A stretch of 64,000 bases of DNA, taken from NCBI GenBank assembly GCA_951406725.2, contig OX597833.1:40176001-40240000 (forward strand). Direction: 5' to 3'. Below are positions 25,429 through 53,925 of this stretch, piece after piece. A model generated the notes under the pieces. The model was given only the letters and a program-made list of their open reading frames with translations, was not told where the DNA came from and did no database searches. The position numbers were made by a program, and so were the translations under genes. The stretch comes from Octopus vulgaris. Its lineage: Eukaryota. Position 1 is the stretch's first letter. Each line of letters starts with the position of its first letter.

Positions 25429-25640
25429 AAATGTGACCTTGTGTGTACCGTTGGCGATTTTTTTTCCTCTGTCTTCTCTTCTCTGGATCTTTCCTTTTCC
25501 TATGTTTCCGATGAAGAGCTCCACTCGAAACGTTAAACCCTCCTTCTTTCCTTCTTTCCTGAGCGTCCAATAATACTATATTTGTTCCACGTCCTTGCGT
25601 TGTTGTGTTTTTTTGTGCTTTCTTGTTTGGATTAACTTTA
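25429..25640 (+). mobile_element. Family H1: Penelope-like pLTR-type repeat with minimal hammerhead
   Basis: Flanked by (TA)n; copies at 38167-38380 (-) and 43932-44133 (+). Confidence 0.7.
25504..25538 (+). ncRNA. Minimal type-I hammerhead motif (CCGAUGA variant core)
   Basis: gttt-CCGATGA-a-gag-ctcca-ctc-GAAA-CGTT-aaac: stem I gttt/aaac, stem II gag/ctc, palindromic ACGT stem III. Confidence 0.55.
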
Positions 25641-25666
25641 TACATATATATATATATATATACATA

Positions 25667-26310
25667 CTAGCAGAATAGCCTGTCATTCCCAGGCAATTTT
25701 TACATAGAATTTTTACATAGAATGTCTTACATAAAGTTTTGTTTATTCCATGTCAGGGTATGCCTTCCCTGGCAGATTGGTCTCCTGATCAGGACCCATT
25801 TGTGTGATTTTTCGCAAAAAAATTTTGTCGAGGAAGTATTCCCTTTTTAAATTATTTACATGTCTGTTTCACATGACTTTATTCATTGAAACTTATTAAA
25901 GCTTCAGAAGTTCTTACAACTTGGATCGCCGTATGCTTTGCTTTCGTTTGTTTAATAAAAATTCCTCCACCTAATGATTTTGCTTTCATTTTGTGATAGA
26001 CAGCTATCATTCAGAAAATGCCAGCTTCTAAATCCTGTTTTCTGATTAGGTAAAATTTATTAAACTTTAAACCTCAGTAAGATTTTTCTGCAACAAATAA
26101 ATAACAAAATCAGATTTAATGTGGAACTTTATTTCAATATACCAAATTTGAAAATTTTGACATAATTTTAAAATCTCACAATATGTGACAGCAACAGGGA
26201 AGACCCTACAAAAGTAAATAGACAGACAGTTATAGGATGTGACACTCACACACACAGACACATTTACAAACATACACACAGGTAATCACGAATTGAAAAT
26301 GGTGTATAAT
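25667..26310 (-). mobile_element. Helitron-like element; 3' end at 25667
   Basis: Minus strand ends gcctg-ggaatga-caggc hairpin, tattctg, CTAG then T; 5' extent uncertain. Confidence 0.5.
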
Positions 26311-26861
26311 AAATATATGTATGTATGTATGTATATATGTATGTATGTATCTATCTATGTATGTATGTATGTATGTATGTATGCATGTATATGTATGTAT
26401 GTGTACAGAAAAGCCACTTACCCCTCTCTCCTTAAAGCTACATATTCCTCACACCCACCTTTCTCTCCCTTCATTGGCATTTTAAAAGTTGTGTGTGTGT
26501 ATTTACAAAAGTATGTATGCAGCATCACATGTATATGACAGCTGTATTAGCATTAACATCTCATTGCCACTCCATATTTGTCACTTACTGAATTCTGTAC
26601 TCTCCTTCCCTGACATCAATTACAGTCACTCTGCTACTACAGTTCCCTCAGACTAATACTTTTTCACCCTTCTCATTTTATCATATAATTCGCCCAACTC
26701 CACTAGGGTGCATATTATAGATTTTTATTGAAATCCAATTAGCCTATTATTAAATTGAATGTCAGTGTAACATATATGCAAAGTTTGGCAAATATTGGAT
26801 TGCTGGTTTAGGCAGTAAAATGGTAACAGACAGAAAATGCCATTTATATAGAAGGTATTTA

Positions 26862-27320
26862 TAGGCACAGGCATGGTTGTGAATAGGTGCACCAATGTTT
26901 GTGTGATTAGAAGCTTGCTTCCCAACCACGTGGTTCTAGGTTCAGTCTCATTGCACAGCACCTTGGACAAGTATATTCTACTATTGTCTTGGACCGGTCT
27001 AAGTCTTGTGAGTGGATTTGGTAGACGGAAACTGAAAGAAGCCTATCGTATGTATATTATAGATATATATATATATATGTATATATATATCAGTGTATGT
27101 GTCTTTGTGTTTGTCTCCCCACCACTTCTTGACCACCGGTGTTGATGTGTTTGTATCCCCATAACTTAGTGGTTCAACAAAAGAGACCGGTAGAATTAGT
27201 ACCAGGCTTAGTCAAAATATAAGTACTGGGGTTGATTCAACTAAAAACAAAATTCAAGTCAGTGCTCCAGCATGGTCACAATCTAATGATTGAAACGCTT
27301 AAAAGATAAAAGATAAAAGA
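26862..27320 (+). mobile_element. Family B SINE
   Basis: Homology to other B copies. Confidence 0.85.
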
Positions 27321-27339
27321 TATATGTATATGTATATGC

Positions 27340-27401
<62 letters not shown>

Positions 27402-27939
27402 TATATACACACACACACACACACATACATACACACACACACAGATATATATAGACATATAATGTGTGTGTGTACCTGTGTGTTTGTGTGTAGGTGTTGT
27501 TTTATATTCTTTAGAGAAACACCACACCCTCAGCAGAAGATGACAGAGTACTCATTGTCCTAAAAATACATTATAAAGAATCAATACCAAAACATTTAAT
27601 TGTTGCTTTCAATCACCAAAACTTACTTATTTAAGTAGAATACACAACATATTATCTTTTTGATTCCTTCTTTTATCATTATTATTATTTTTAATTCCCC
27701 TATAACAAAGGATGCCTACTTGGAGCTCCTGAAAAATATTTTGGCATTAGACACGGAAAGGAAAATGTTCTAAAGCATTATTCTACAGTTTAAGAAAGCT
27801 CCTTTACCCAACATTTACAAAGTTTGATAATTCCCTAATGCACAATTTTCAGGACATTTGTAAAGCGGAGCTGGACTAATACAAAAAACTCTGATGTGAT
27901 TCCCTTGGGTTTCTTCTTCTAAGACTATATCAATGATCG

Positions 27940-28190
27940 TGGAGGCATGTGGCTTAATGGTTAGGGTGTTGAACTCATGATTGTAAGGTTGTGGTTTTGA
28001 TTCCTGGATCGGGCGATGCGTTGTGTTCTTGAGTAAAACACTTCTTTTCACGTTGCTCCAGTCCATTCAGCTAGCAAAAATGAGTAATCCTGTGATGGAC
28101 TGGTGTCCCCTCTAGGTGGGGAATTTCTACGCCACTGAAACCGGGAAGCCGGCCCTTATGAGCCTGGCATGGCTCGAGAAGGAACATTTA
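27940..28190 (+). mobile_element. Family D tRNA-derived SINE
   Basis: A/B-box head; 3' part gatggactgg..ggtggggaa..gaaaccgggaa..ggcccttatgagc shared with family C. Confidence 0.8.
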
Positions 28191-28195
28191 ATTTT

Positions 28196-28510
28196 GTGGA
28201 GGTACATAGCCTAGTGGTTAGAGCAGTGGACTTGTGGTCGAGGGATCGCAGGTTCGAATCTCAGACCGGGCGATGTGTGTGTTTATGAGACAAACACCTA
28301 AGCTTCACACAGCTCCAGCAGAAGGTAATGGCGAACTTCTGCTGACTCTTTCGCCACAACTTTCTCTCACTCTTTCCTCCTGCATCTCTTGCAGCTCACC
28401 TGCGATGGACCGGCGTCCCATCCAGGTGGGGAACCTATATGCCAAGGAAACTGGGAAACCGGTCCTAATGAGCCAGGGATGGCTCGAGAAGGAACAAACA
28501 AACAAACAAC
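28196..28510 (+). mobile_element. Family C tRNA-derived SINE
   Basis: A box tagcctagtgg, B box ggttcgaatct, (AAAC)n tail; copies at 39387 and 62665. Confidence 0.9.
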
Positions 28511-28544
28511 ATATCCAATGATCAGGTCTACAGAACAGCAATTG

Positions 28545-29359
28545 CAAGGTGCATTCCAGAAGTTTTGAGATCTTTTTAAGGGAAAAGCAGCTATGTCTGC
28601 CCTAGATTATTATAATGTTAGTATATCATTATTATACATCTAATAAGCTGACCTGCCAACTTTTGTTATTCCAGATTGAAGAAGACGACTGTAACAGCAC
28701 TTAGAACACACTCTACTAAACACTTCTTGTCACAGCTGACTAGTTTGCAGAATGCAACTAGGATGTATGGAAGCTTGCTATACAATAAAGTTTTGTGTTA
28801 AACTGAGCAAAATACTACAGAAATGTATGAAATGCTCTACATTGTTTATAAATTGACTTTTTTGCCAGCTCAAGAAGTTTGAGAATGGTAGAGAGGAAAT
28901 GAGAGAGATGATAGGTATGGTAGTTAGGGAGGCATTAGGACATGGGATTGGTGTGGCAACTATATACAGAATTATTAATCTCTATATATAAAACTGAAGT
29001 TGTCTGTGTATGGCAGGTTTGGTAGCCTTCAACTAACGCTATCTCCTCCGAGACCCTGCGGCACAAGTTGACCAAAATTGAAAGTATGATAGAAGAAGGC
29101 TTGCTCTTCCTTCCGTGGAGGAAAAAATTCAAATTGGATCATGTTAACACCAAAAATTATTTACATCAAAAAGGTGCTTTTTTTCTATGAAAATCCCTAT
29201 TTTTTACAATTTTTTTACTGCTCTGTTGCCATTTTTTGGTATATTTCAACCAGAAAAATGTCAGAGAATCTTACTTTGAAGAAGATTACAGTTTTGTATT
29301 TCTTTGAAATTAATAAATGTCTCATCTGCAAAAGTCTGTAAACTTCTGAAATGCACCTA
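28545..29359 (+). mobile_element. Internally deleted mariner relic
   Basis: TIRs aggtgcattccagaagttt / aaacttctgaaatgcacct; N-terminal transposase remnant IKFCVKL..TEMYEML..VY..KKFENGRE at about 28780-28900. Confidence 0.7.
28978..29265 (+). mobile_element. Helitron-like 5' fragment nested in the mariner relic
   Basis: Starts tctctatatataaaactgaagttgtctgtg, resembling non-autonomous Helitron 5' ends; no 3' CTAG end seen. Confidence 0.45.
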
Positions 29360-29381
29360 TACATGTATTGAGTATATAAAG

Positions 29382-29862
29382 TAGGGGGTTGTCAAAATGG
29401 TCAGTACCGACTCATGGGTGGGTCTACATGGCTATTGAAGGGGTCAATAAGCACCTGAAATGATTTTGAGTGTTAAGGGTGCTGAATTATTAGCAAATTG
29501 AATCTGGAAGAACATGTTGATTCAAGGTTAAAAATCTTTAATTTCAAGCCAAATATTGATGCAAACACTCTTCATCAAACACATATTTTACATTAAATAT
29601 TCCAACTATATCAACAAAACATGACTGAATTATTATTGTTTTTATCAATTTCATTAAGTACCTTCATTAAATTTCTTTAAATATTTCTTGCTAAAACATG
29701 CTACTGACATGAATAAATGAAGGAATTATTGTTCTGCGGTGAAGAAATTTTTTTATTAATTATACTTTTCATTTCTATTTTGGACATTTACATGTTGGAG
29801 GTCAATAAATTATCAACAATTCTGTAAGAGGGTCAATGATACAAGGTGTTTGTCAACCCCTG
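29382..29862. mobile_element. hAT-type non-autonomous element
   Basis: TIRs tagggggttgtcaaa / tttgtcaacccctg; 8-bp flanks atataaag and atttaaag (one mismatch). Confidence 0.75.
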
Positions 29863-30889
29863 ATTTAAAGCAAGAAAATTGGAGAAGTGATAAAAATTCG
29901 AACTACAATGATCTTGATGGATTCCACGATACATTGATCATGATAGTGGACATTCCAAACTCCATATTGAATAAAATAGCATTAACTGTTCATTAAACAA
30001 AATATACAGCCTTCTGTGTACATTGGTTCATTGCTGGATTTGGCAGTATTAGAATGCTAAAGGGACTTTTGAATCAACCTGTATAACACTCTTAAAGTGA
30101 ATATAATGATATATGTGTTTTCAATGGCTATCATCATCCCATCATGGTGTAATTGTTTCAGTTTCAACGCATAATCTCAGATTAAGTCACTTACCAAATA
30201 AGTGCAACACTTAAATTAGTGTATGTGCATGCATGTGTATGTGTGTACATGTATGCATTTGCATGTGTGTGAGTATGTCATTTGAGGCGTATGCATGAAT
30301 ATATATAAACACACATACACATGCATATATACACACACATGGATTTTATTGTGTCTTCTCAGTAGGACTTTTAATTAAAAATTTCAAACTGCAGATACAG
30401 CATGACAATTCTTTCTCCTTATATATCACTCTAAGATATCTCAAGTTTCACCCTATTATTTACCATTATTTGTATTGGGCTTCATACTGTCTCTCTCAGC
30501 TGATATATTTAAACTTCTCTCTAAGCAGCATTTAGTTGATGATTCTTGTTCTGTTGTCTTGAAAGTCAATCTCATGAGATTTGCAATTCTTTTAATAGAT
30601 ATAAGAACTCTAATTTATTTGCCTTGTGTAGCAATACAAAAGATCTCTCTTTGTATTCCAAAATGGAAATATACACAAAAGGAAATTGTGAATTAACTTG
30701 CTAAGATGCTTAATGTAGATGATATTAGATGTTATAAGCTCTGACTTGAGACAACAATGAGAAACAAAGTCAGTTGTTGGCAAGAAATGGATATATAATC
30801 AGAGCCATGTCAGTGGGTTTGTATCTCATCTCCCTCTTATCATGTTGATGCTTATAATATTTTATATTATAGGCACAGGTAACATTGTG

Positions 30890-31090
30890 AAATGGTAGAA
30901 GCATTGGCATGCTGAGTGAATGTTTAGTGGCATTTTGTCTGTCTTCATGTTCTGAGTTCAAATTCTGCCAAGGTCGACTTTGCCTTTCATCTTTTCTAGA
31001 TCAATAAAATAAGTACCAGTTGAGGTCTAGGGTCAATGTAATTGACTTACCCCACCCTCGAAAATGCTGTCCTTGTGCCAAAATTTTAAA
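30890..31090 (+). mobile_element. Family E SINE
   Basis: ttctgagttcaaattctgccaaggtcgactttgcctttcatc...aagtaccagt. Confidence 0.8.
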
Positions 31091-31099
31091 CTCTTATTA

Positions 31100-31248
31100 T
31101 AGGCACAGATGTGGTTATGTGATAAGAAGTTTCCAACCACATAGACTGAGGCTCAGGCCGACTGCATGGCACCTTGGGTGAGTGTCTTCTATTATAACAT
31201 GGGCAAAGCAAGTGGACTTGGTCAACAGAAACTGAGAGAAGCCCATTC

Positions 31249-31250
<2 letters not shown>
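31100..31250 (+). mobile_element. Family B SINE 5' half
   Basis: Degenerate head through aactgagagaagccc, then (TA)n. Confidence 0.7.
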
Positions 31251-31286
<36 letters not shown>

Positions 31287-31287
<1 letters not shown>

Positions 31288-31435
31288 TTTATTTAAAGCA
31301 GCAGAAATTCAACAGAACCTGTTACTCGGAGTTTCCCGTTCCTGTTCGTCGGACAGTTTTGTTAAAATATTTTAACAAAACTGTCCGACAAACAAGTAAC
31401 AGGTTTTGTTGAATTTCTGCTGCTTTTAAATAAAG
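31287..31435. mobile_element. Family H2 fold-back pLTR-like element
   Basis: Inverted arms around gttaaaatattttaac; the left arm has a minus-strand hammerhead-like motif at 31319-31356 (ctgt-CCGACGA-..-GAAA-ctccgag-TA-acag). Confidence 0.65.
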
Positions 31436-31506
31436 CATATTACTCTACCCCTAGTATTTGAGTACTCTTTTTTCCACCTTGTTTCACATTTATGTGTTTA
31501 CTCAGG

Positions 31507-31548
<42 letters not shown>

Positions 31549-31586
31549 TACATATACATATACATATATATATACATGTATATATA

Positions 31587-31622
<36 letters not shown>

Positions 31623-31863
31623 TGTATGTATGTATGTATGTATGTGTATGTGTGTTTATGGGGGTGGGGTGTATGACACAAAATTGTAATCGTCATTTGG
31701 ACGTTGACTAATGAAGAATTAGCTACAAATTTTTTGTTTGTTATGTTTTTGTAAAAATTTTAACAAAACTGTTGAATTTCTGCTGCTTTTAAATAAAGCA
31801 TATTACTCTACCCCTGGTATTTGAGTACTCTTTTTTCCACCTTGTTTCACATGTGTTTACTCC

Positions 31864-31914
<51 letters not shown>

Positions 31915-31949
31915 CATATACATATACATATACATATATATATACATGC

Positions 31950-31987
<38 letters not shown>

Positions 31988-31988
31988 G

Positions 31989-32022
<34 letters not shown>

Positions 32023-32407
32023 TGTATGTATGTATGTATGTGTATGTGTGTTTATGGGGGGGGTGTATGACACAAAATTGTAATGGTCATTTGGACGTTG
32101 ACTAATGAAGAATTAGCTACAAATTTTTTGTTTATGTTTTTGTAAAAATTTTAACAAAACTGTCGAATTTCTGCTGCTTTTAAATAAAGCATATTACTCT
32201 ACCCCTGGTATTTGAGTACTCTTTTTTCCACCTTGTTTCACATTTATGTGTTTACTCCGGTATATATATATATATATATATACATGTATATATATATGTA
32301 TATATATATGTATATGTATATGTATATGTATATTTATATATATATATATATATATATATAAATATACATATACATATACATATACATATATATATACATA
32401 TATATAT

Positions 32408-32465
<58 letters not shown>

Positions 32466-32560
32466 TAGATACAAAACCACTATTATATGCAAATCAAACA
32501 AAGAAAGACTTAAGCCAATACATAAAATAATTTATATAAATTAAAATTTAACATATGAAT

Positions 32561-32612
32561 AACCACTACGATCGTTTCGTGTCAGCACATCTTAGACATT
32601 CTTCAGGTGGTT
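32561..32612 (-). ncRNA. Type-I hammerhead ribozyme motif
   Basis: aaccac-CTGAAGA-a-tgtc-taagatgtgct-gaca-c-GAAA-CGATCG-TA-gtggtt: 6-bp stem I, 4-bp stem II, palindromic stem III, GUA site. Confidence 0.75.
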
Positions 32613-32636
32613 TCAAACTCGCTAAGAAGGTTTTGA

Positions 32637-32688
32637 AACCACCTGAAGAATGCATAAGATGTGCTGACACGAAACGATCGTAGTGGTT
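32637..32688 (+). ncRNA. Type-I hammerhead ribozyme motif (stem II mutated)
   Basis: aaccac-CTGAAGA-atgcataagatgtgctgacac-GAAA-CGATCG-TA-gtggtt. Confidence 0.65.
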
Positions 32689-32870
32689 ATTCATATGTTA
32701 AATTTTAATTTATATAAATTATTTTATGTATTGGCTTAAGTCTTTCTTTGTTTGATTTGCATAATAGTGGTTTTGTCTCTAATTTGATATAATATAATAT
32801 TTTATTATAAAATTTGATTCAATCTTAAATCTGATTTTTCCTTGTAAATTTGGATTTATTCCCTAATATT

Positions 32871-32969
<99 letters not shown>

Positions 32970-34009
32970 TGTATGTATGTATGTGTATGTGTGTTTATGG
33001 GGGTGGGTGTATGACACAAAATTGTAATGGTCATTTGGATGTTGACTAATGAAGAATTAGCTACAAATTTTTTGTTTGTTATGTTTTTGTAAAAATTTCC
33101 ATGTTTTGTTTCTATTAAATTTTTGAAATATGTATATATGTATATATGTATGTATGTATATATATAGATGTTCATATGTGTATACTTGTGTGTTACTGTC
33201 TCTTCTCTGACTTCATGTGATTGCCGAAAACGAATGCCACTGTACAAAGCACTGTAACAAATCAGTGCTGGCTTTAATTTCTATAGAAAATCTGTAGAGA
33301 TGACCTTAACAAGTGATTTAATAGCACTGCTAACACAGTAGAACACAGTTTTGATTTACGAAGTGTTTAATATACTTTGTAGTATATTGTGGTTACATAA
33401 CGAAATATGGTGTCCCTGCAAGTAACTAAAAAGCAATATCTATAAATACAACCAAGCAAATATAAAATCATACATGAAGACAAGAGAACAAATACATCAA
33501 TCTGCAATGGTGCAGTAGGCAATGTATTCTTCTCAAAATGCAAGCTTCCTATTATATGCAGTTTGTCTTTTTATTTTTTAAATTTCTTTTTTTTCACTAA
33601 TTTTTAAAAAATTACTTTTTAAATTCTATTTTTTCTTTCCTCAAAAAACAATACTATTTTATTCTTTATTTCATTTTTGTATTATTTTTGAAGTTACAAT
33701 CTCTTGAATTTCAAATAATTTCTTATTTACTTTCCCTAGGAATATAGAATGTTCTAGAAGACATCTTATGTTAAGAATGTTGTATTTTTGATTTTCTAAC
33801 TCTTAATATCTTAGTCTCTTATATACAGATGTTTTGTTACATGAAGTATATTTTTGTTTGTTTTCTTTGCCAACTACCATCAATTACTTAACTGTATATG
33901 ATAGTATATATCAACAATATGACTTAACATAAAATATCTCAATAGAGATTTCAGGATCTGATATATGTAGTATAATGAGCTGAAAGCTTTCATTTGAGTT
34001 TATCCAAGG

Positions 34010-34258
34010 AATTCCTTCTCGAGCCATGCCAGGCTCATAAGGGCTGGTTTCCCGGTTTCAGTGGCATAGAAATTACCCACCTGGATGGGAAGCTGGTCTG
34101 TCGCAGGATAACTCACTTTTGCCAGCTGAGTGGACTGGAGCAACGTGAAAAGAAGTGTTTTGCTCAAGAACACAATGCATCGCCCGGTCCAGGAATCGAA
34201 ACCACAACCTTACGATCATGAGTTCAACACCCTCACCACTAAGTCATACGCCTTCGCA
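34010..34258 (-). mobile_element. Family D SINE
   Basis: Reverse complement of 27940-28190. Confidence 0.85.
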
Positions 34259-34468
34259 TATCCAAGTAATTAGTATACTAAAATTTGTTCTAAATATTTG
34301 TAAAATCTAAAATAAAAACAAGAGACATCACTTAAATAACATCAACGGATGAGTATTTGTGGACTATTTAAACAAAACTGATTAAAAGAAGGTCTCATCT
34401 TTAAAACTAATTATTTAAAGCAACAGGATAAGACCAACTCTGTATTGTAGTTCGGTTATTTATTTTTC

Positions 34469-35145
34469 AAATGTGGTATGCAAGAGAGGCGACTGCACTG
34501 GTATGGCCATGTGTTATGTATGAATGAAGATAGCTGTGTGAGGAAGAGCCACTCCCTAACTGGAGAAGGAACTTGTAGAAGAAGTAGACCCAGGAAGACA
34601 TGGGATGAGGTAGTGAAGCATGACCTTTGAACATTGGGCCTCACAGAGGCAATGACAGGAGACTGGGACCTTTGGAGATGTGCTGTAATTAAGAAGACCT
34701 GGCAACTAAAGTGAGATCACAGCCACGCATGTCCGGCCCTGTTAAGAATACCCTGATGCATAGGGCAATATGATATGCTTGAGAAGACCTGTTGAGCCAA
34801 ATAAAACCAATATCATAGCTGGAGCCAGTAAAAAGCACCAAACGATCATGACTGATGCTAGTACCCCCATGACTGACTCCAGTGATGGTTGCATGTAAAA
34901 AGTACCATCCAAACGTGATCATTGCCAGGCCTGCCTGACTGGCTCCTGTGCTGGTGGCACATAAAAAGTACCCACTACACTCTTGGAATGATTGGCGTTA
35001 GGAAGGGTATCCAGCTGTAGAGACATTGCCAAATCAGATTGGAGCCTGTTGCAGCCTCTGGCTCTCCAGACCTCAGTCAAATCATCCAACCCATGCCAGC
35101 ATAGAAAACGAACGTTAAACGGTGATGATGATGATGATGATGATG
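34469..35145 (+). mobile_element. RTE LINE 3' end: ORF C-terminus (to about 34714) plus the 3'UTR that defines family A
   Basis: QERRLHWYGHVLCMNEDSCVRK...EGTCRRSRPRKTWDEVVKHDL*TLGL...DLWR, continuous with the ~60-bp units, core and (GAT)n tail. Confidence 0.9.
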
Positions 35146-36449
35146 AGGAAAATTTGAAAGCATTCATTAGTGCAATGATGCATGGCTTGTTGATTACTTG
35201 ATATGGTTGGACAGAAGTGACAGAAGTCAAAATTTCAAATTAATACAATGTGGGATGTTTTTGAACTTTACTGACAACTTATATTTAGAAAATGTAATAT
35301 AATTCTTCTTATTTGGGTTACAGAATGTGTGTTTGTGTTGATGATATCTTATTTTGAATTTATTATAAGTTAACACACACACACATATGTATATATATAT
35401 ATATAAGATTGCAGTTGATGTATGTTAGTGATTACTGTTGCACTATAAGCTAGGTTACTAAGTAGGCAATTACTGTCTAACTAGCACGAAAAAGAGTGTT
35501 ACAATTGCAATTGGTTGGACTGGGTGTATAGCTTTTCCATATAAACTCTTATTTTCCTGTCCACCAAGTCAAATCACCCATAAAGTAATTTCTTAACATA
35601 CCACAATAAAATAATACACTATGACCCCCACACCTACTTTTCAGCTACAATGTTCAAACAAATTAACCCCAAAATAACTATATATAAGATTTGGAAAATC
35701 AAAGTAATTTACAATATAATGAAAGCTATACAGCTGAAACTTTGAAGTGATTGTCAATTTTTTCCTTATAAAAATATGATATTTTACTTCACCGAAAAGT
35801 ATTGCATGATTTAGTGATGCTGACACAGCTTTATAGCATTGGTGAGAGTGATGATGGTGGTAGTGGTGATGATGGTACTGGTACTAAAAGTACCATCAGC
35901 TGTGGTGGTACTATTGTTGTTTCATTTAATCCCAGCTCAACACTAATGGGACAAACCTATAGTCAAAGTCATTCCAATCATGACCATCCTGTCTCTTTAT
36001 TGATATCTAGGGCTGTTTTTAGATAAGACAGTAAGGTAAGGTATTAGAGTAGATATGGTTGCTACTTCTGGAAAATTGAATGGTGTCAGGGGCTTTCCTG
36101 TTGCTTCTTGTTGGTGGCAGCAGTGGTGGGGATGGTTACGCTGAACGTTGTGATGTTGCTAATGATGGTGATGATGGATGTTGTGGTAGTGGTGATGGTG
36201 GTGACGGTGGTGGCTGTGGTTGTGATGTAGTTGGTGATGTGGTCTGCAACAATGATGATGATGATGAGGTGTTAGGTGTCGCTTGGGATGATAGAGGTGT
36301 TGGTTGAGGTGGTGGTATAGGTAGTGGTGATGGTGGTACTGGAAGCAATAGTGGCTGTGATGAGAGTGTTGTAGTGGTATAGATAGGGGTGAAAGTATAA
36401 ATAGTGGTAACTAACAGAAGCAGTGGTAACAGTTATATGAAATGTCTTT

Positions 36450-36960: not shown

Positions 36961-37012
<52 letters not shown>

Positions 37013-37015
37013 TTC
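36450..37015. repeat. Polypyrimidine (CT-rich) tract
   Basis: Seen directly. Confidence 0.9.
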
Positions 37016-37203: not shown

Positions 37204-37250
<47 letters not shown>

Positions 37251-37452: not shown

Positions 37453-37520
<68 letters not shown>

Positions 37521-38166: not shown

Positions 38167-38380
38167 GTTAATCCAAACATGAAAACACAAAGAGAAAACA
38201 CAACAACGCGAGGATGTGGAACAAGTATAGTGTTATTGGACGCTCAGGAAAGGAAAGAAAGAAGGAGGATTTAACGTTTCGAGTGGAGCTCTTCGTCAGA
38301 AACATAAGAAAAGGAAAGATCCAAGGAAGGGAAGACGGAGGAAAAAAAATCGCCAACGGTACACACACGGTTGCATTTTG
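38167..38380 (-). mobile_element. Family H1 copy; hammerhead motif at 38269-38303
   Basis: Minus strand gttt-CTGACGA-a-gag-ctcca-ctc-GAAA-CGTT-aaat. Confidence 0.75.
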
Positions 38381-38401
38381 AATGTATGTATGTATGTATG
38401 T

Positions 38402-41777: not shown

Positions 41778-41781
<4 letters not shown>

Positions 41782-42225: not shown

Positions 42226-42249
42226 TTTGATTTTTGTATGTACAGTTTA

Positions 42250-42715: not shown

Positions 42716-43050
42716 TTTGGTGCTGGTACCACATTAAAAAAAGCACCCAGTACACTCTGTAATGTAGATGGTATTAAGAAAAGCATCCAGCTGTAGAAAC
42801 CATGCAAAAAGAGACAACTGGAGCCTGGTACAGCTCTCTGGTTTGCCAGCACCTATCAAAGCACCCACCATATGCCAGCATGGAAAACGCACATATGATG
42901 ATGATGATGAGGATGATGATGATGATGGTGGTGGTGGTGGTGGTGGTGATGATTATGATGATGATTATTATTATGACGATGATTATTATTATGATGATGA
43001 TTATTATTATGATGATGATTATTATTATGATGATGATGGTGATGATGATA
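42716..43050 (+). mobile_element. Degenerate family A end with expanded GAT/TAT tail
   Basis: aaagcacccagtacactct..gcatccagctgtagaaac..catggaaaacg then the repeat tract. Confidence 0.75.
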
Positions 43051-43931: not shown

Positions 43932-44133
43932 ACGTGTACCGTTGGCGATTTTTTTCCTCCGTCTTCCCTTCTTTGGATCTTTCCATTTCCTATGTTTCTG
44001 ACGAAGAGCTCCACTCGAAACGTTAAATCCTCCGTCTTTCTTTCCTTTCCTAATAGTCCAATAACACTATACTTGTTCCACGTCCTCGCGTTGATGTGCT
44101 TTCTCTGTGTGCTTTCATGTTTGGATTAACTAT
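43932..44133 (+). mobile_element. Family H1 copy; hammerhead motif at 43994-44028
   Basis: gttt-CTGACGA-a-gag-ctcca-ctc-GAAA-CGTT-aaat. Confidence 0.75.
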
Positions 44134-44204
44134 ATAAATATATACAGCTAATAAAAAATGTGTCAGAAAGAAGCACACTCTAAAAATATAGAGCAGTAAT
44201 TATT

Positions 44205-44350
44205 ACAACAAAATTATATATAGAGTTACCCAAGGTTTTGCACCCACAAAGCTAAAGCCCTGTGGACTGCTTGTCCGACTCTATATGAATGCAAAATTTT
44301 TAGCTTTGTGGATGCAAAACCTTGGGTAACTCTATATAAAATTTTGTTGT
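44205..44350. repeat. Inverted repeat, ~52-bp arms and ~42-bp spacer
   Basis: acaacaaaatt.tatatagagttacccaaggttttgca.ccacaaagctaaa on both strands, two mismatches. Confidence 0.9.
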
Positions 44351-44723
44351 CGGTGGCACATAAAAACACCATCCGAGCGTGGCCGTTCGCCAGCCTCGTC
44401 TGGCACCTGTGTCGGTGGCACATAAAAACACCATCCGAGCGTGGCCGTTCGCCAGCTTCGTCTGGCACCTGTGTCGGTGGCACATAAAAACACCATCCGA
44501 GCGTGGCCGTTCGCCAGCCTCGTCTGGCACCTGTGTCGGTGGCACATAAAATCACCCACTACACTCTCGGAGTGGTTGGCGTTAGGAAGGGCATCCAGCT
44601 GTAGAAACACTGCCAGATCTGACTGGCCTGGTGCAGCCTTCGGGCTCCCCAGACCCCAGTTGAACCGTCCAACCCATGCTAGCATGGAAAGCGGACGTTA
44701 AATGATGATGATGATGATGATGA
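44349..44723 (+). mobile_element. Family A copy with three near-identical 62-bp units
   Basis: gtcggtggcacataaaaacaccatccgagcgtggccgttcgccagc(c/t)tcgtctggcacctgt repeated three times. Confidence 0.92.
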
Positions 44724-44741
44724 TATATATATATATATCTA

Positions 44742-45624
44742 CAGGGTACAATGGGTAAACTGTTGCCATTTTATATTTTTAATTGTATGCATGTTTTGTT
44801 TTGAATTTTGTTGACTACACAGTATAGTAGGGTCAGTTGGGCACCATCTGTGAGGAAAACAGCACCATGACACAATTCACTCTGCCAGAAATTTGGAAAT
44901 GACATACTGTACTGCTTGGCATTGTCGTTGGACGCTCCAATACAAACATTTCAGGGTGTTTGAGTATCAATCTGAGAAAAGTGCAATCTGAGGACATGTA
45001 CTGAGAGTGATAAAAAATCAAACATCCAGTCAACATCATGGTGTTTGGAGTTATCACTAATGATGGTGACATTATGCCTCCAGACATCTTCTCATGTGGC
45101 CTCAAACTCAACACAGAGACCTACATCAAGTGCCTGGAGAAGGTAGTGCTGTCCTGGGTCAAGAAGGTGGTTACTGGAAGACCCTATCTTTAGCAACAGG
45201 ACTCTGCACTATACCACACAAGCAGGAGAACTCAGTCATGGCTGTCAGACAATTTCTGCAACCTCATCACCCCAAACATCTGGCCACCTAACTCCCCAGA
45301 CTGCAAACCCCTTGATTATTATGTGTGGGGCACAGTGAGTGGCAGACCAACAAAACTCATTGTAACACCAAAGATGAACTGAAGGTAAGGATTATGGCAG
45401 CATTCACCAACTTAACCAAGGAAACCGTCCAGATGAGTTGCAAGAGATTCTGAAGTCCTCTGGAGGCTGTGGTTGAAGCCAATGGCGATTTTATTGAATA
45501 AATTTACTCTTTAGCATTTCAAGGTACTTTTATGTAATTTTGGTAAATATATCTATTAAAATGAGATGTCAGTGTTATTTTCATTTTTGCATAATTTAGA
45601 TGACAGTCTATTCATCACATTCTG
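44742..45624 (+). mobile_element. maT-family (DD37D) Tc1/mariner element, internally deleted
   Basis: TA flanks, degenerate TIRs; KHPVNIMVFGVI...QQDSA...IWPPNSPDCKPLDYYVWG with 37 residues between the last two catalytic D. Confidence 0.9.
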
Positions 45625-45636
45625 TATGTGTGTGTG

Positions 45637-45673
<37 letters not shown>

Positions 45674-46069
45674 GTGTGTGTGTGTCAGTGTGTGTGTATG
45701 TGTGTGTTTGTGCGTGTGTATGTGTGTGTGTGCATATCATCTCCACCGATCCCATGCCTTTCCTCTACCAAAACTACAAAGCAGTAAGAATAAGTAATAT
45801 ATGTATACACAAACATATATGCATACATTTACATACATACACTTCTGTCTATCTATCTATCTACCTATTTAACTAATGTACAGTACATACATTTGTTCAC
45901 AATAAACAAATCAATTGTGCAGGTTGTTTAGCAAGAAATTGCTATCAAAATATAAAAGGGCGAGTAGAGAAGAAAAAGAAAAAAATTTAATATGGCAACT
46001 TTTCAGTGGATGCATGAGTCTTAAATGAATAATTACATTGGGAGAAAGAGTTGCAGCTACAAAACATAC

Positions 46070-46490
46070 CATGTTCATAAGGATTTTTAACTACTTGGTG
46101 TTAATCAATAGTTTTCCTATGTCTATGCAGACATGAATGGCCTTCTCCTCAATACATACAACTGGCATCAAATGTCCTTGTCCACCAAAGTTCTGTTAGT
46201 TCACTCCAAAACTTGAAATTATTTTCCTTTTCCAGGATCATCATTGATAACGCTTTGAACCCATTGGATGAATAATGGTGTCCTTATAGAGTCCAAGCAT
46301 TTCGGATGGCTTTCTCGTTGGAGCATTTGGAACATTCCTGCCAGAAGCTTTCCAAATCCATCCAAACTTTGCATACAAAAGATCTTGCAACATTCAAAAA
46401 GTTGGCAATTTCTAAATCAAGAGTATATACTAAAAATGATTGCGTGTATTTTCATTTCTGGTGTTATTTTATCTGGTACATGAGATCTTA
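46070..46490 (-). mobile_element. Tc1/mariner-superfamily transposase N-terminal relic
   Basis: Frameshifted TPEMKIHAII..DLEIANFLNVARSFVCKV..DSIRTPLFIQWVQSVINDDPGK, an HTH-type transposase N-terminus. Confidence 0.65.
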
Positions 46491-47009
46491 AGGAAATTTA
46501 AAATTTCTTATTAGTTTGAATAGACTAATACACCAATAATTAAATGTCTGTAAATACCCCTTGCATGCTGTATATATGTGTGCATATATACACACACCCA
46601 CCTACAACAACAACAACACACACACATATACACAAATATATACATTTATGCTTGTTGTCACCATCAATAAAGAAAACAAGTAAAATAAGTAGTAGGAATT
46701 TTCCAAAAAAATCATGCATTCTTCATGCAAAATTTAAGGGAATGTGGTGTTTGGTGGGAAGCTAGGTTTGCAATACCTGTGGAGGTGTATGTCTTTCAGA
46801 GGCTGGGCTCATTAGTCACCAGCAGAGCCACAAGTGAAAAGTATAAATTTGTCAGAGTCAGTGGTCTTAACATGGTCTGTGATGTCCCCCTTGGTCACAA
46901 GTGGAAAATATATGTATGTGTATGGCTATATATATATGTGTGTGTGTGTGTGTGTATGTATAATTTTATATGTATGTGAAAATATATATATATTTATTCC
47001 AGTATGTAC

Positions 47010-47044
<35 letters not shown>

Positions 47045-47154
47045 CATATGTATGTATGTATGCATGTATGTATGTATGCATGTATGTATGTATATATACA
47101 TATATATGATTATACTTATTTATAAATATATACACACACACATACATGTACACA

Positions 47155-47189
<35 letters not shown>

Positions 47190-47327
47190 CTGTGTGTGTG
47201 TGTATTCATGAAGTGCTTACATATATCTGCATACACAAACATTCATAAATTTATCCATGTGTATGTTAACACACATAAATATAACACAAATATATAAATG
47301 CATGAAAATATAATGATCACAAACATA

Positions 47328-47398
<71 letters not shown>

Positions 47399-47981
47399 CT
47401 ATATATCTATCTATCTATCTATCTATCTCTCTATCTCTATCTCTCCTTCTCTTCTTCTCTCTCCCACTCTCTCTCACACTCACACTCACACTCTGTGTCT
47501 GTATTTGCACATGTATGTGTGTGTAAGCGTGTGTGTGTGTGTATGTATATGTGTGCATGCATGCATGTATGCACATGTAGACATGAGTAGTTATACAGTT
47601 GTGAGTGGTTCTGCGTGAATAGGATTAACTGTAGGCACACTCATTTATATGTCTATAAGTATATGTGTAGTTACGTATGCAAGTGCATACACACACATAT
47701 CATGTGTGTGTGTGTGTGTGTTAATTTATATATGCATATATATACATGTTAATGCATATAGGCAAATACGCAAAATGCGTTTATCAGAAACTAAAAGTAA
47801 TTACCTATTAATAAACATGAGGATCTGCTTCTTCATAAACTTCCACTGTCGTGTGCATATTCATAAACACATACATCCACACACACACACACACATAGAT
47901 ATATATATATGTGTGTGTACATGTTTCTGTACGTGTCTTCCAATTAGTTGTGTATGTAAGAACATATATGTGACTACCGAC

Positions 47982-48012
<31 letters not shown>

Positions 48013-48138
48013 CATGTATGTATGTGTGTATGTATGTACGTATGTATGTATGTATGTATATATGTATGTATGTATGCATGTACGTATATATGTATGTATG
48101 CATGTATGTATGTATGTATGTATATATATGTATGTATG

Positions 48139-48171
<33 letters not shown>

Positions 48172-48397
48172 CTTTCTCTTTCCCTTTATCTCTATAAAGT
48201 ACATATGAACATACATACATATACATATATACATATACATGCACACACACACATACACATATATATACACACACACACATAAATGCATATATATATTATA
48301 AAGGCATATATGTATTGGTGTGTGAATATGTGTGTGTGTATGTATATACATGCATACATATATATATAAACATATATACATATATATATGTGCACAT

Positions 48398-48485
<88 letters not shown>

Positions 48486-48812
48486 TTGTGTGAGCACATG
48501 TTCGTTTTCATGCACACATGCATGCATTCATTTATACATACACATGCAAACCCTGTCCCTTGCAATGATAAGATCTATTGGCTGTCAGCAAGATAACATC
48601 TGTAGTAATTCTAGATTTGGAAGGGAGTGGAGGTGACTCACATTACACACTCACATTCACAGAAATATATACATATTCATATACATATATATATTTACAT
48701 ACTCTCACACACATACCAGCTTCCATATTTTCGCAAGTATATATGCATATACATTAATATTACGCATCATACACATACTCCAACTCCCACACTCAATAAT
48801 ATAAATATGTGC

Positions 48813-48872
<60 letters not shown>

Positions 48873-48875
48873 GTG

Positions 48876-48908
<33 letters not shown>

Positions 48909-49383
48909 GTACTCATGGACAAACACACTCATACACACATAAGCATACACACAAGCACATGCACACACAAACAGATATATGTATGTATATATTTTCACTT
49001 ACATGCCTACTAAAAATACTCTATCACATGCATGTACACTCACACATACACACAAACATACATACATACACTCTCCTACACACATGCTTACACATACACT
49101 TTTGCATACACACACTCATACAGGCCTGCCTAAACAAACATGCAGAGACACATGACACATACATATGCATATCTGTGATTATATCTGAACACACATATGT
49201 TATATGATATATGTATATACACATACATTAATATAATTCCAAACGTACAAACATAGTATGGCTATGAACAAGCATATATGCAGAAATCATTAAAATAATG
49301 CTTAACTAAGGGATATATAAAGTACATAAGGTCTATATAGCCATGCTGTAAAAATACAACCTGTGTGGGGGTGTATATATATA

Positions 49384-49436
<53 letters not shown>

Positions 49437-49584
49437 GTATATATATATACACATATAGATATACATATATATATATATATACATATATACATATATATAT
49501 ATACATATATACACACACACATATATATATACATATATACACACACACATATATATACATATATACATATATACACATATATAT

Positions 49585-49805
49585 ATTCTTTTATTCTTTT
49601 ACTTGTTTCAGCCATTTGACTGTGGCTATGCTGGACCACCGCCTTTAGTCAAAGAAATTGACCCCAGGACTTAAGCCTGATAGTTATTTTATTGGTCTCT
49701 TTTGCCAAACCACTAAGTTAGAGGGATGCAAACACACCAATATTGGTTATCAAACGATGGTGGGTGGACAAACACAGACACACAAACATATATATACATA
49801 CATAC

Positions 49806-49847
<42 letters not shown>

Positions 49848-50003
49848 CAAACTTCTTTCAGTTTTTGTCTACCAAATCCACTCACAAGTCTTTGGTCAGC
49901 CCAAGGCTATATCAAAAGACATTTGCCCAAGCTGCCACACATTGGGACTGAACTTGGAACCAAGTGGTTGTGAAGCAAGCTTCTTACCACACAACCATGT
50001 CTG
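49585..50003 (-). mobile_element. Family B SINE
   Basis: Homology to other B copies. Confidence 0.85.
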
Positions 50004-50413
50004 CACCTTCCGTAAACAAAATCATCTCACTCACCAACATATATATATATAGATATAGATATATATATAATTATGTATGCCTGTATATGTATCATTGCTT
50101 TTGTCATCATCAGTTTTTTTACATTCACTATCTTCATGCCGCTGGTATGTGTTGCACAAAATGAGCTGAGGCAGTATTCCACAGCTGGAAGCCTTTCTTG
50201 AAGCCAATCTTTAAATGCTTAATCCTTTTTTTTGTGTGTGTTGTTTTGACAAATATGGTACTTTATTCCTGTACATTGAACTGCTGAGTGAGATGATTTT
50301 GTTTATAGAAGACATAAACAAATATCTCTGTAATTGAAGTGGTGTCAATACAAGGACATGCAAGGACAAAAACGCACTGAAATACTAATTTCCATACATA
50401 TGTATGTATATAT

Positions 50414-50481
<68 letters not shown>

Positions 50482-50556
50482 GAGAGATAGATAGATAGAT
50501 AGATAGACAGTTAGACAGACAGATAGACAGATAGATAGATAGATAGAGAGATAGAG

Positions 50557-50613
<57 letters not shown>

Positions 50614-50985
50614 TACATACATACATATATGTGTGTGTGTGTAGAAAAGAGAAAGTAACACACAAGTTGATATGTATATAAGGAAAATATGACAAGGTAG
50701 AAAATGCAAAATTAATTTTATCATAATTTTACATTTTAATGCCGGTTTCCCCCTTTTAGACTTTTTCAACTAAGAGTAAAATAAGAAAAACGATTAAATT
50801 GGAGAAAAAAAGTTAAGTGAAATGTTTTGTAGATATTTCCATAGTTTTTAAAAAGGTAAAGTAAATATTTCAGGTAGTCTGTCTCTCTTTATATTCCATT
50901 GTGAATGCTTCATAGGTGGGTAGTAGTAAATCTGAAGGAATAGTTTGGATACAGTGAATTGATGGTTTAAGCAGAAGTAGCCAAG

Positions 50986-51054
50986 GAAGAAGAAGAAGAA
51001 GAAGAAGAAGAAGAAGAAGAAGAAGAAGAAGAAGAAGAAGAAGAAGAAGAAGAA
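50986..51054. repeat. (GAA)n pure repeat
   Basis: Seen directly. Confidence 0.95.
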
Positions 51055-51304
51055 GGAAAAGAAGGGGGAGAAGGAGAAAGAAAATACAGGAGTACTGTGA
51101 CACAGTAAATTTTTTGTGGAATCTTCTTTAATGGTCAAATGACCTAAAAGTGACCTGCTTTGGTCATAGCAGTAGTGGTTGGAATTGTTCTAAATTCTTG
51201 TAGTAGTTTCATCTGTGGTGGTGGCAGCATACAAAGTAGGTTTATATTTTGTAGTAGAATATGCTTCTTTGCTAATGCGCTGATTATAGGTTGCATTGTC
51301 CCTG

Positions 51305-51503
51305 AATTTATAGAGGGGAAAATTCTAAAGTTGAGTTGTTCGTTAGTGGCACAAACATTGGTGTGCTTGCTAATTCTATTTTTCTGTATTCTCATACTTT
51401 AATCTGGAATCTATGTACCATCATCCTCTGGCATAGACTGTTTTTAGTTTGACCAATATATTGTTCTTGACACCCTGAGCAAGTTTATTCATATATTAGT
51501 ACA
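51305..51503 (-). pseudogene. Penelope-like element GIY-YIG endonuclease remnant
   Basis: LIY..TCSGCQEQYIGQTKNSLCQRMMVHRFQIK then frameshift ..SKHTNVCA..FRIFP. Confidence 0.85.
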
Positions 51504-51506
51504 GTG

Positions 51507-51855
51507 TCACACCATTCGAGCGTGATTGGTACTGCGTCGCCTTACTAGCACTTGTGCTGGTGGCTTGTGAAACATTCGAGCAAGGACGTTGCCAGTGCCT
51601 CTGGACTGGCTCCTGTGCAGGTGGCACGTAAAAAGCACCATTTGGACGTGGCCGTTGCCAGTACCACCAAACTGGTGCTCATGCCGGTGGCATGTAAAAG
51701 CATCCACTACACTCTCGGAGTGGTTGGCATTAGGAAGGGCATCCAGCTGTAGAAACTCTGCCAGATCAGATAGGAGTCTGGTTCGCCAGACCTCAGTCAA
51801 ATCGTCCAACCCATGCTAGCATGGAAAGCAGATGTTAAATGATGATGATGACGAT
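51507..51855 (+). mobile_element. Family A copy lying within the Penelope-like relic
   Basis: Units, core and GAT tail. Confidence 0.88.
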
Positions 51856-51856
51856 G

Positions 51857-52030
51857 TAAGGGATATATTCATTTTAGTGTGTCTGGGGTGGAAAGAGTTG
51901 AATGGCAGATATTGCTTGGAGTGTGTGGGCTTATAGTAGATATATGTTTCTATTTTGTTGTTGGATTTCTTAATGAGGATGTCCAGGAATGGAAGTTGTT
52001 GGTTGGATAAGTATAGGATTAATATAGAGA
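51857..52030 (-). pseudogene. Penelope-like element RT C-terminal remnant
   Basis: LPFLDILIKKSNNKIETYIYYKPTHSKQYLPFNSFHPRHTKMNI matches the PLE motif LPFLD..Y.KPT...YL...S.HP. Confidence 0.9.
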
Positions 52031-52129
52031 ATGCCCCTGCTACTGAATACATACATAAACATCAACACGGAGCATATTGGTGGGACATTTGCAGCAAAAT
52101 TTCTATCAAGAGTAAACATAACAGACATC

Positions 52130-52310
52130 GCTAGCCACTAAACCTTTTTTGTAATTTTCTTTCCCTGTTTATTTCTGTGTTCCTTTCTGTTGAAGAGTGT
52201 AGGTTCGAAACATAAAAGACTTTCTCACTTCCCGAGCATTAAACTAATACATCTGTATGTTGTTTACACACCCGTCTTTGTCTTTTGTGTTTTTGTTAAT
52301 TCTTTCAATC
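52130..52310 (+). mobile_element. Family H4 pLTR-like repeat; degenerate hammerhead at about 52183-52218
   Basis: cttt-CTGTTGA-a-gagtgtaggttc-GAAA-CATA-aaag; homologous to 53765-53925 (-). Confidence 0.6.
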
Positions 52311-52359
52311 ATATAAGTCAGTTTCTTGGATTACGAGAGACCTCCCTCATCCTCATTAT

Positions 52360-52425
<66 letters not shown>

Positions 52426-52492
52426 GCTATCATATAGGTCAGTTACCTTGTTGTGAATATCTCTTCAAAAATCAGAGAGAAAGAGGATAACT

Positions 52493-52645
52493 ATGGATGT
52501 GTGGTAAGTAGCTGGCTTACGAACCACATGGTTCCAGGTTCAGTCCCACTGCTTGGCACCTTGGGCAAATGTCTTCTACTATAGCCTCGGGTCGACCAAA
52601 GCCTTTTGAGTGGATTTGGTTGATGGAAACTGAAAGAAGCCTGCC

Positions 52646-52720
<75 letters not shown>

Positions 52721-52942
52721 TGTGTGTGTGTTTGTGTGTCTGTGTTTGTCCCCCAAAACATCGCTTGACAACCGATGCTGGTCTGATTACATCCCCATAA
52801 CTTAGCGGTTCAGCAAAAGTGACCGACAGAATAAGTACTAGGCTTACAAAAAATATGTCCTGGGGTCGATTTGCTCAACTAAAAGGTGATGCTCCAGCAT
52901 GGCCACAGTCAAATGACTGATACAAGTAAAAGAGTAAAAGAA
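52493..52942 (+). mobile_element. Family B SINE
   Basis: Full length; internal (TG)n. Confidence 0.9.
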
Positions 52943-53299
52943 AGACTAACTACTTCAAAACCTTCAGCTTCTATAATCAGATTACAAATTCACAATTACA
53001 CCAATAATATTTGGCACACTTGATTTTGTTGGTAAATGCCTAAGTTACAATTCGAGAAAATCAGAATTTTTACAAAAAGAAATCATCCACTTAATACACA
53101 AATGCAATTTGTAAGTGGAATAGTAAAAATATGCAAGACTTTTCTCAAGTTCAAAATGTATGTTGCTTTTGTCATCTACATTCCAATGATGGAGCATTAT
53201 ATTTTTGTAAGAAACCAGCTTCTTCCACACAGGAGGATTTTGGATAATTAAAAAAAAAAGAGAACATTCAAACACACATAAATATATACTCACACCCAC

Positions 53300-53347
53300 T
53301 ATATACGTACATACATGCATGCATGCATACATACATACATACATACA

Positions 53348-53380
<33 letters not shown>

Positions 53381-53666
53381 GTATATATGCATGCATACAT
53401 GCATGCATCCATGCATACATCCATGCCTACATACATATATACACACATGCATGTATACATACATACAATACATACATGCATGTACACACACACCTACATA
53501 CATGCATACATACATACATACATATGTACTTGTATACATGCATGCATACATACATATGTACTTGCATACATACATACATACAAACATACATACATATGTA
53601 CTTGCATACATACATACATACATACATACATACATACATGCATGTATACATACATGCATACATACA

Positions 53667-53697
<31 letters not shown>

Positions 53698-53722
53698 GTA
53701 CTTGCATATATGCATACATACA

Positions 53723-53752
<30 letters not shown>
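53300..53752. repeat. (CATA)n tract with recurring tatgtacttgca variants
   Basis: Seen directly. Confidence 0.95.
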
Positions 53753-53754
<2 letters not shown>

Positions 53755-53764
53755 GTTCAAATTT

Positions 53765-53925
53765 ACAGGATACAAATGGCAAAGACGGGTAAAGGTATAT
53801 TAGTTTAACGCTCAGGAAGAATGGAAAATCTTTGACGTTTCAAGCTTACGCTTTTCAATAGAAAGGATTGAGAGGTAAAAAAAACAGACATAGAAAAAAT
53901 TTTGTAGGGATTAAAGGTTCAACAT
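53765..53925 (-). mobile_element. Family H4 copy; degenerate hammerhead at 53830-53865
   Basis: Minus strand cttt-CTATTGA-a-aagc-gtaa-gctt-GAAA-CGTC-aaag. Confidence 0.6.

Follow-up and report, generated by a model that had tools for sequence, protein, structure and literature searches.

A 64-kb window of the Octopus vulgaris genome (positions 40176001-40240000 of contig C20 in genome G000, which comprises 2.8 Gb in 227 contigs) carries short repeats with hammerhead ribozyme motifs, and these are very probably the pseudo-long terminal repeats (pLTRs) of four coding families of Penelope-like elements (PLEs), likely placed beside (TA)n tracts as short or 5'-truncated complementary DNAs (cDNAs). 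An earlier note on this DNA had described the repeats as four separate nonautonomous families of Penelope-like origin. All four are present, with three copies of family A (H1 of that note), two of family D (52.1 and 53.8 kb of the window) and one inverted back-to-back pair each of families B (31.3 kb) and C (32.5 kb), and to these we add one decayed copy of a fifth family, E; because the earlier note was without per-family coordinates, B, C, and D were equated with H2, H3, and H4 from coordinate order. Attachment to PLE open reading frames (ORFs), set beforehand as a test that could refute the earlier reading, was found for all four families. That they are separate nonautonomous families was not borne out, as every one of them terminates a coding PLE and its copies have the staggered 5' ends of 5'-truncated insertions. 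Given this ORF linkage and the (TA)n repeats at the 3' ends of 232 of 253 copies, the copies in the window are truncated or solo-pLTR products of ordinary PLEs and not independent retrozymes. The class is already known, its anatomy having been published between 2014 and 2024, and families A-E are further members of it.

Families A, B, C, and D each form the 3' end of a protein-coding PLE elsewhere in the genome, with the ORF upstream on the same strand. The linkage was obtained by walking upstream from long copies, whereas walking downstream from 20 GIY-YIG endonuclease (EN) loci led to none that ended in A-D. For A, there were 30 copies that reach farther upstream, and 12 were extended by 9 kb; the three of these that carry a PLE ORF show a frameshifted reverse transcriptase (RT), a cysteine linker, a CCHH-type GIY-YIG domain and a CA-rich untranslated region (UTR) of ~1.8 kb followed by A, and the CA-rich stretch is visibly common to two A loci compared. 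Among 25 loci found via the endonuclease piece of locus L299, 19 have D within 1.2 kb downstream on the same strand, four of these D-linked loci being near-duplicates on contig C26. The parents of A, D, and E have a C-terminal endonuclease, a CX2-5CxxC linker and a CCHH motif in frameshifted translations, marks that are common to Neptune and Nematis; by these shared motifs they would be Neptune-type, and B and C are likewise assignable by motifs to the Hydra clade. Pfam recognized GIY-YIG and RVT_1 in a Neptune-type translation and nothing in three Hydra-type translations, and an RVT_1 search of the genome gave other RT families and was not useful here.

A query taken upstream of a longer B copy gave 40 scored matches, all 100% identical (173 nt), and a Hydra-type endonuclease lies upstream of B in 9 of 30 loci. 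The B parent shows the Hydra marks RWK, DKT, CxCX5C, CxxC, and CxH and no CCHH. In locus L362 (G000:C7:5110500-5120400), which has one linker cysteine altered, two pLTRs enclose a 716-aa open frame, and an inverted partial copy lies alongside. The young subfamily of B is very young, its ORFs being 99% alike (644 of 651 aa), and was probably active recently. Contigs from four presumed RNA runs cover the young B element, two of them bridging tail to ORF; as strand, level and cleavage cannot be read from them, they were not used as evidence. For C, a Hydra-type endonuclease was found upstream of exon 1 in 7 of 16 extended loci, and locus L279 holds a whole element with RT, endonuclease, UTR, intron and motif. 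The C parent has all the Hydra marks except RWK, the region of which is missing from the loci.

Remnants of a PLE RT and a GIY-YIG endonuclease had also been reported from the window; they are present, but they belong to E and to none of the four families, their own 3' end being E in 25 of 29 related loci. Another young family, the sixth, is of Neptune type and has many 781-aa open frames (loci L167, L172, and L192); its 3' UTR contains a TATA-like box, a possible splice donor, a U3:A8 hammerhead and repeated boxes that we take to be CRE- and CCAAT-like. Further hammerhead families with other stems were seen at L206:2161, before a GIY-YIG piece, and in L277, which has several, one of them after the end of a different GIY-YIG ORF.

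Among the 253 copies with a recognizable 3' end (67 copies without one were excluded), 232 have (TA)3 within 14 nt past that end (63/70 in A, 32/38 in D, 52/55 in old B, 41/43 in young B, and 44/47 in C), compared with 4.8% and 9.1% of random positions. The adjacency to (TA)n that had been claimed for the repeats therefore stands for the families, but not for the 52.1-kb D copy, which does not abut such a tract. The 5' ends are staggered, as they are in 5'-truncated insertions: their distance upstream of the core is 38-209 nt among 17 unselected copies of A and 2-223 nt among 21 unselected copies of D. B and C have two alternative 3' ends, one short and one tailed, and the tail runs on into the ORF in L362. 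Inverted pairs combine one short and one tailed arm in 19 of 21 cases in C and in 8 of 10 in young B; the 28 of 28 in old B are biased, as those copies were selected by a query of that shape. The pLTR anatomy of PLEs, with a partial tandem, an inverted 5' copy and a one-sided tail, is thus seen in the L362 tandem and in the B and C pairs. Hairpin centers vary from locus to locus, and the arms of one locus share 13 private differences when 2.8 are expected (26 loci), which argues that pairs form anew, either from a single source or with conversion afterwards. Every genomic copy runs across the predicted cut site, and the templates would therefore have been uncut. No head-to-tail arrays of the short unit were found in the window or in the loci inspected. 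The B and C pairs of the window are predicted to form long duplexes of 66 and 149 pairs, respectively; read-through RNA folded in this way would bury the ribozyme and could feed editing or small-RNA pathways.

Ten minimal type I hammerhead-shaped motifs from families A-E lie within 28.5 kb (25.4-53.9 kb of the window). The features are as follows.

25430-25636, plus strand: family A copy 1, 3' end of a putatively Neptune-type PLE; core from 25508 with C at position 4; (TA)n on both sides.
31287-31503, both strands: family B back-to-back pair of the old subfamily, assigned to the Hydra clade by motifs; (TA)n on either side.
31366-31287, minus strand: B minus arm with a U4C core and the short end.
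31371-31503, plus strand: B plus arm with an internal deletion and the long tail; stem II and GAAA lost.
31770-32257, plus strand: two more family B tail pieces (31770-31862 and 32161-32257) within a local tandem duplication.
32465-32874, both strands: family C back-to-back pair, assigned to the Hydra clade by motifs; (TA)n on either side.
32620-32465, minus strand: C minus arm with an exact core and the short end.
Remainder of the C pair, plus strand: C plus arm in spliced form, opening with the last part of exon 1 fused to exon 2 (32618-32646); core from 32643; stem II broken; tail long.
38167-38382, minus strand: family A copy 2; exact core at 38289-38299; (TA)n at the 3' end.
43934-44130, plus strand: third copy of family A, with an exact core that begins at 43998 and a short run of TA at its 3' end.
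50651-50985, minus strand: family E 3' end with a decayed hammerhead-shaped motif at 50771-50693; the family core is U3:A8.
51232-51499, minus strand: family E GIY-YIG endonuclease remnant with a frameshift and a stop.
51864-52001, minus strand: family E RT C-terminal remnant; an unrelated repeat lies between it and the endonuclease part.
52127-52304, plus strand: family D copy, 3' end of a second putatively Neptune-type PLE; core from 52187 with U at position 6; no adjoining (TA)n.
53755-53933, minus strand: copy of a diverged family D subfamily, 78% identical to the 52.1-kb copy; U6 and a damaged G5 (G5A).

A strict descriptor with an exact core matched three motifs in the window, compared with a mean of 0.075 (maximum 1) in 40 block-wise dinucleotide shuffles of the window, and a descriptor that allows one core mismatch matched four, compared with 1.1 (maximum 3), so that the relaxed scan is not significant by itself. 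Of the 10 motifs, 3 passed the strict descriptor with an exact core, and in the other seven the core or a stem is altered or damaged; the descriptor missed B, D, and one C arm, which are backed instead by the genomic copies of their families. The window is crowded, with 10 cores in 64 kb against 1 in a 200-kb systematic sample (binomial p=6e-6), a sample of 20 stretches from contigs C1-C5 only that makes the genome-wide density a rough figure. The window is also rich in microsatellites (14.8 (TA)6+ arrays per 10 kb against 7.6 in the systematic sample), and the 466 kb that lie within 1.5 kb of target copies contain 24 cores of other families, a density ten times that of the systematic sample (p=0.0016). 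The (TA)n flanks that every insertion leaves behind, and that later elements target, likely account for such local crowding.

Counts of exact-pattern matches in the genome, all lower bounds, are 7,965 for A, 9,046 for D, and 1,136 for B, with 0 for all reversed-pattern controls, and a first look gave at least 918 candidates for C. Near-identical duplicated blocks with PLE copies (G000:C1 at 8.39 and 8.77 Mb, and C26 at 0.12-0.47 Mb) slightly inflate the counts. D matches crowd toward the start of C1, where 41 lie in the first 5 Mb and 100 over the first 30 Mb. The expectation that these repeats are unannotated as ribozymes was borne out at the places searched, as Rfam gave no hammerhead family at an A copy and at the C pair (E up to 10) and, over the whole window, none among the 150 matches listed of 735. 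The gain for annotation is at least 18,000 exact-pattern copies, missed by Rfam at the copies tested.

The hammerhead layout that had been described for the repeats holds. The core CUGANGA...GAAA...UH in type I order is the majority form in C (72 of 78 copies, strict) and young B (37 of 44), and stems I, II, and palindromic III differ in sequence across the six families while the layout is kept, as judged from majority lines compared by eye. The extra A that had been part of that description is confined to A and D, where a G10.1-C11.1 pair follows it; the corresponding A of B and C faces U, A, or C and with it makes up the first pair of stem II, which is mostly a mismatch. Family A has the standard core in 51 of 79 loci copies, yet C4 in 65 of the first 100 genome-wide matches (hand count), and old B has C at position 4 in 43 of 62 copies. 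The core is U3:A8 in E and in 25 of 25 copies of the sixth family. Between C subfamilies loop II varies from 6 to 13 nt with stem II and core unchanged. When two copies were co-folded, B, C, and the sixth family formed an intermolecular stem III, whereas the lowest-energy dimers of A and D were not of hammerhead form.

Family D departs from the standard core at position 6, where A occurs in 158 of the 9,046 exact-pattern matches; in a hand count of the first 100 matches position 6 is U in 91, C in 7, and A in 2, position 7 is A in 44, G in 21, U in 21, and C in 14, and position 17 is A or U. Core variation between D subfamilies is confined to the free positions 7 and 17, and the alleles at position 7 track subfamilies (permutation p=0.006 for 69 copies and p=0.001 for 45 nontarget copies); misreading by the RT at each insertion was rejected as the source of this variation because the alleles follow subfamilies. 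Across three flank-defined D clusters (44, 8, and 2 copies), 21 of 22 core and stem columns are invariant compared with 49 of 97 flank columns (p=4e-5), a comparison of few clusters with poorly aligned T-rich flanks from which 16 singletons were excluded. Conservation of the core above its flanks, which the earlier note had made a test, is significant at non-CpG columns in A (0.956 vs. 0.893, p=0.007), D (0.972 vs. 0.905, p=0.009), and the sixth family (p=0.0005), but not in B, C, and E (p 0.13-0.30), and all these values come from copies that were selected by BLAST over the core, a choice that raises the apparent conservation of the core. At L362:2083 a single contig from run X6 has a loose antisense end one base from the predicted cut site, which may be an artefact; the loose end resembles what we take to be a template-switch adapter.

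In family C two different sequences enter one AG|G junction 13 nt before the core. When the base after the end of exon 1 is not T, GTA follows in six of six genome matches (two pairs of which look like one duplicated locus), and these six loci continue for ~1.3 kb to the acceptor, the intron ending in AG 13 nt before the core. Exact junctions were counted 30 times spliced and 14 times unspliced, and the plus arm in the window is spliced. Among 26 spliced copies, six begin at one point ~28 nt before the donor, a point that resembles an initiator element, and none extends into the promoter side. If the C RNA starts at this point, the short spliced copies would represent the 5' end of the RNA as complete cDNAs, with reverse transcription starting inside the 5' pLTR, and the spliced and unspliced copies would together show, with no need of experiments, where the promoter, the intron and the RT start sites of a PLE lie. 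For B an intron acceptor was considered and rejected, as the AG of the young subfamily is replaced by AA in the old one and neither a donor nor a spliced form turned up.

These observations can be joined in one mechanism. The GIY-YIG nuclease of each element would cut AT-rich DNA on both strands, and reverse transcription of an uncut RNA would have two alternative start sites, both in the pLTR-to-ORF junction a short way downstream of the hammerhead, and would mostly halt early, leaving solo pLTRs. Priming from both cut strands would give an inverted pair with one short and one tailed arm. In C the RNA would start ~28 nt before the splice donor. Cutting by the hammerhead is predicted to need a dimer, formed through the palindromic stem III, and perhaps the protein of the element too. 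Cutting is likely weak and dispensable for insertion, most plainly in D (A6U) and in the U4C subfamilies of A and B; as D keeps the hammerhead shape with one catalytic letter changed, cutting was likely not needed for its spread.

Several points weigh against a derivation of the repeats from coding PLEs. No upstream ORF was seen in 9 of 12 extended A loci and 9 of 16 extended C loci. The ORF-bearing C loci are of an older subfamily (~85% to the window copy), whereas the long copies of young C are without an ORF, and the youngest source of C could therefore be ORF-less. The B copy in the window is of the old subfamily, 87% over the motif to the ORF-linked young B, and no old-subfamily B copy was traced to an ORF among the loci examined. 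All A and D parents seen are broken by frameshifts, and the (TA)n tracts may be the target or may be made or lengthened at insertion. A reading of the repeats as independent nonautonomous ribozyme elements, similar to short interspersed elements or retrozymes, transcribed from short copies and borrowing PLE proteins in trans, would draw on these ORF-less young C copies, on the large excess of short over ORF-bearing copies (7,965 and 9,046 exact-pattern matches in A and D), on the common 5' start of spliced C copies and on the many D subfamilies. We consider it improbable, as every family was traced to a coding PLE, 5' ends are staggered, spliced C copies are without the region upstream of the inferred start, locus-specific centers show that the B hairpin is not one fixed unit, and the loci examined hold no head-to-tail arrays of the short unit. 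That the motifs are chance matches in AT-rich, repeat-rich DNA can be regarded as refuted: the 1.1 relaxed matches per shuffled window and the silence of Rfam would speak for it, whereas the exact-core excess, the thousands of copies with empty reversed-pattern controls, one layout in six families with different stem sequences and the position at the ends of PLE ORFs speak against it, as do published Hydra motifs listed in the supplement of PMC8557442, which have the flanks of stems I and III in common with B.

A derivation from coding PLEs is also accepted by the other explanation that we weighed, which differs on function only and holds that the hammerheads are active, with the help of protein or as dimers, in all families including A6U and U4C, and that cleavage is under selection. 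The D core varies only at free positions, the core surpasses its flanks in conservation at non-CpG columns of A, D, and the sixth family, and the youngest ORF-intact families have standard (37 of 44) or U3:A8 (25 of 25) cores. Natural U4C and A6C hammerhead variants moreover retain activity, but the activity listed for them is low, as it is for changes at position 6 (PMC3088659). Set against selection for cleavage are also the nonsignificant comparisons in B, C, and E, the inflation by BLAST selection, the presence of the cut site in every genomic copy and the report that catalytic mutants did not affect insertion in vitro (PMC11167929), and on balance we regard selected activity in all families as unlikely. 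A bolder proposal, which we put forward only tentatively, is that the PLE hammerhead is kept for its fold and not its cut, and that the spliced solo C copies prove, within the genome itself, that the RT starts internally at the 5' pLTR. Family D, with over 9,000 copies, U6, and stems and core fixed but for positions 7 and 17, would then be either a natural A6U ribozyme rescued by a dimer or by protein, or a noncutting hammerhead that serves as a protein handle. With a standard core in B, which is young and ORF-intact, a family with U3:A8, families with U4C and a very large A6U family, this one genome offers a natural test set for the purpose of PLE hammerheads.

Most of the anatomy has precedents. 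The sections on PLE hammerheads in PMC4209133 describe a short stem I, an extra nucleotide before stem II, a palindromic stem III for dimers, the U3:A8 variant and many families per genome, mostly as single motifs, with solo motifs from truncated PLEs and pairs on opposite strands 100-700 bp apart, which recur here, the extra nucleotide with its G10.1-C11.1 pair in A and D; they also report an intron ending at helix I in Drosophila virilis Penelope and that minimal PLE hammerheads cut poorly and only as dimers. The octopus families differ from those described there in having at least 18,000 exact-pattern matches in three families and family-wide A6U and U4C cores, and the searched supplement of that paper holds no octopus example. 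Craig et al. (2021, PMC8557442) likewise describe an octopus Hydra element, together with inverted copies, tails and a bias toward (TA)n. The Hydra clade of C-terminal EN+ PLEs, including Hydra-1_Obim, shares with B and C the marks RWK, DKT, CxCX5C, and CxxC/CxH without CCHH (section 11 of that paper) as well as (TA)n insertion, a hammerhead in canonical order, an inverted 5' copy and a one-sided tail; B and C, however, have a different hammerhead from the one listed for Hydra-1_Obim, and C differs from the clade as described there in its 1.3-kb pLTR intron with spliced solo copies. The parents of A, D, and E resemble the Neptune/Nematis-type PLEs of the same account in their RT-linker-EN order, CX2-5CxxC linker, CCHH, DKG, and microsatellite bias, and differ in their long CA-rich 3' UTRs and variant cores.

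The PAc Poseidon element of Anolis, as reported by Frangieh et al. (2024, PMC11167929), has two RT start sites, which would define the tail here too, cleaves AT-rich DNA on two strands and uses an uncut RNA template; its hammerhead is protein-assisted, and catalytic mutants did not impair insertion in vitro. It belongs to a different clade, and the octopus families are known from genomic footprints alone. Animal non-LTR retrozymes, as characterized by Li, Clavereau, and Pollet (2026, bioRxiv 10.64898/2026.07.22.740005), are alike in their type I hammerhead, PLE pLTR origin and dispersed monomers, but they are defined by head-to-tail arrays with a motif per unit, whereas the octopus families are linked to ORFs, and their copies stand alone or in back-to-back pairs. 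A literature search on hammerheads, Penelope, cephalopods and core variants, with subscription papers, Repbase, and Dfam outside its range, gave no description of these families or of an A6U PLE core.

Three further features lie beside the repeats in the window. Directly downstream of A copy 3 is a 160-bp imperfect inverted repeat (44191-44350), the first 48 bases of which were matched at one other locus. The 123 bp at 52004-52126 that separate the E RT remnant from the D copy belong to neither family and have an 80% match in locus L196. Positions 44960-45520 hold a decayed transposase remnant, which we take to be Tc1/mariner-like.

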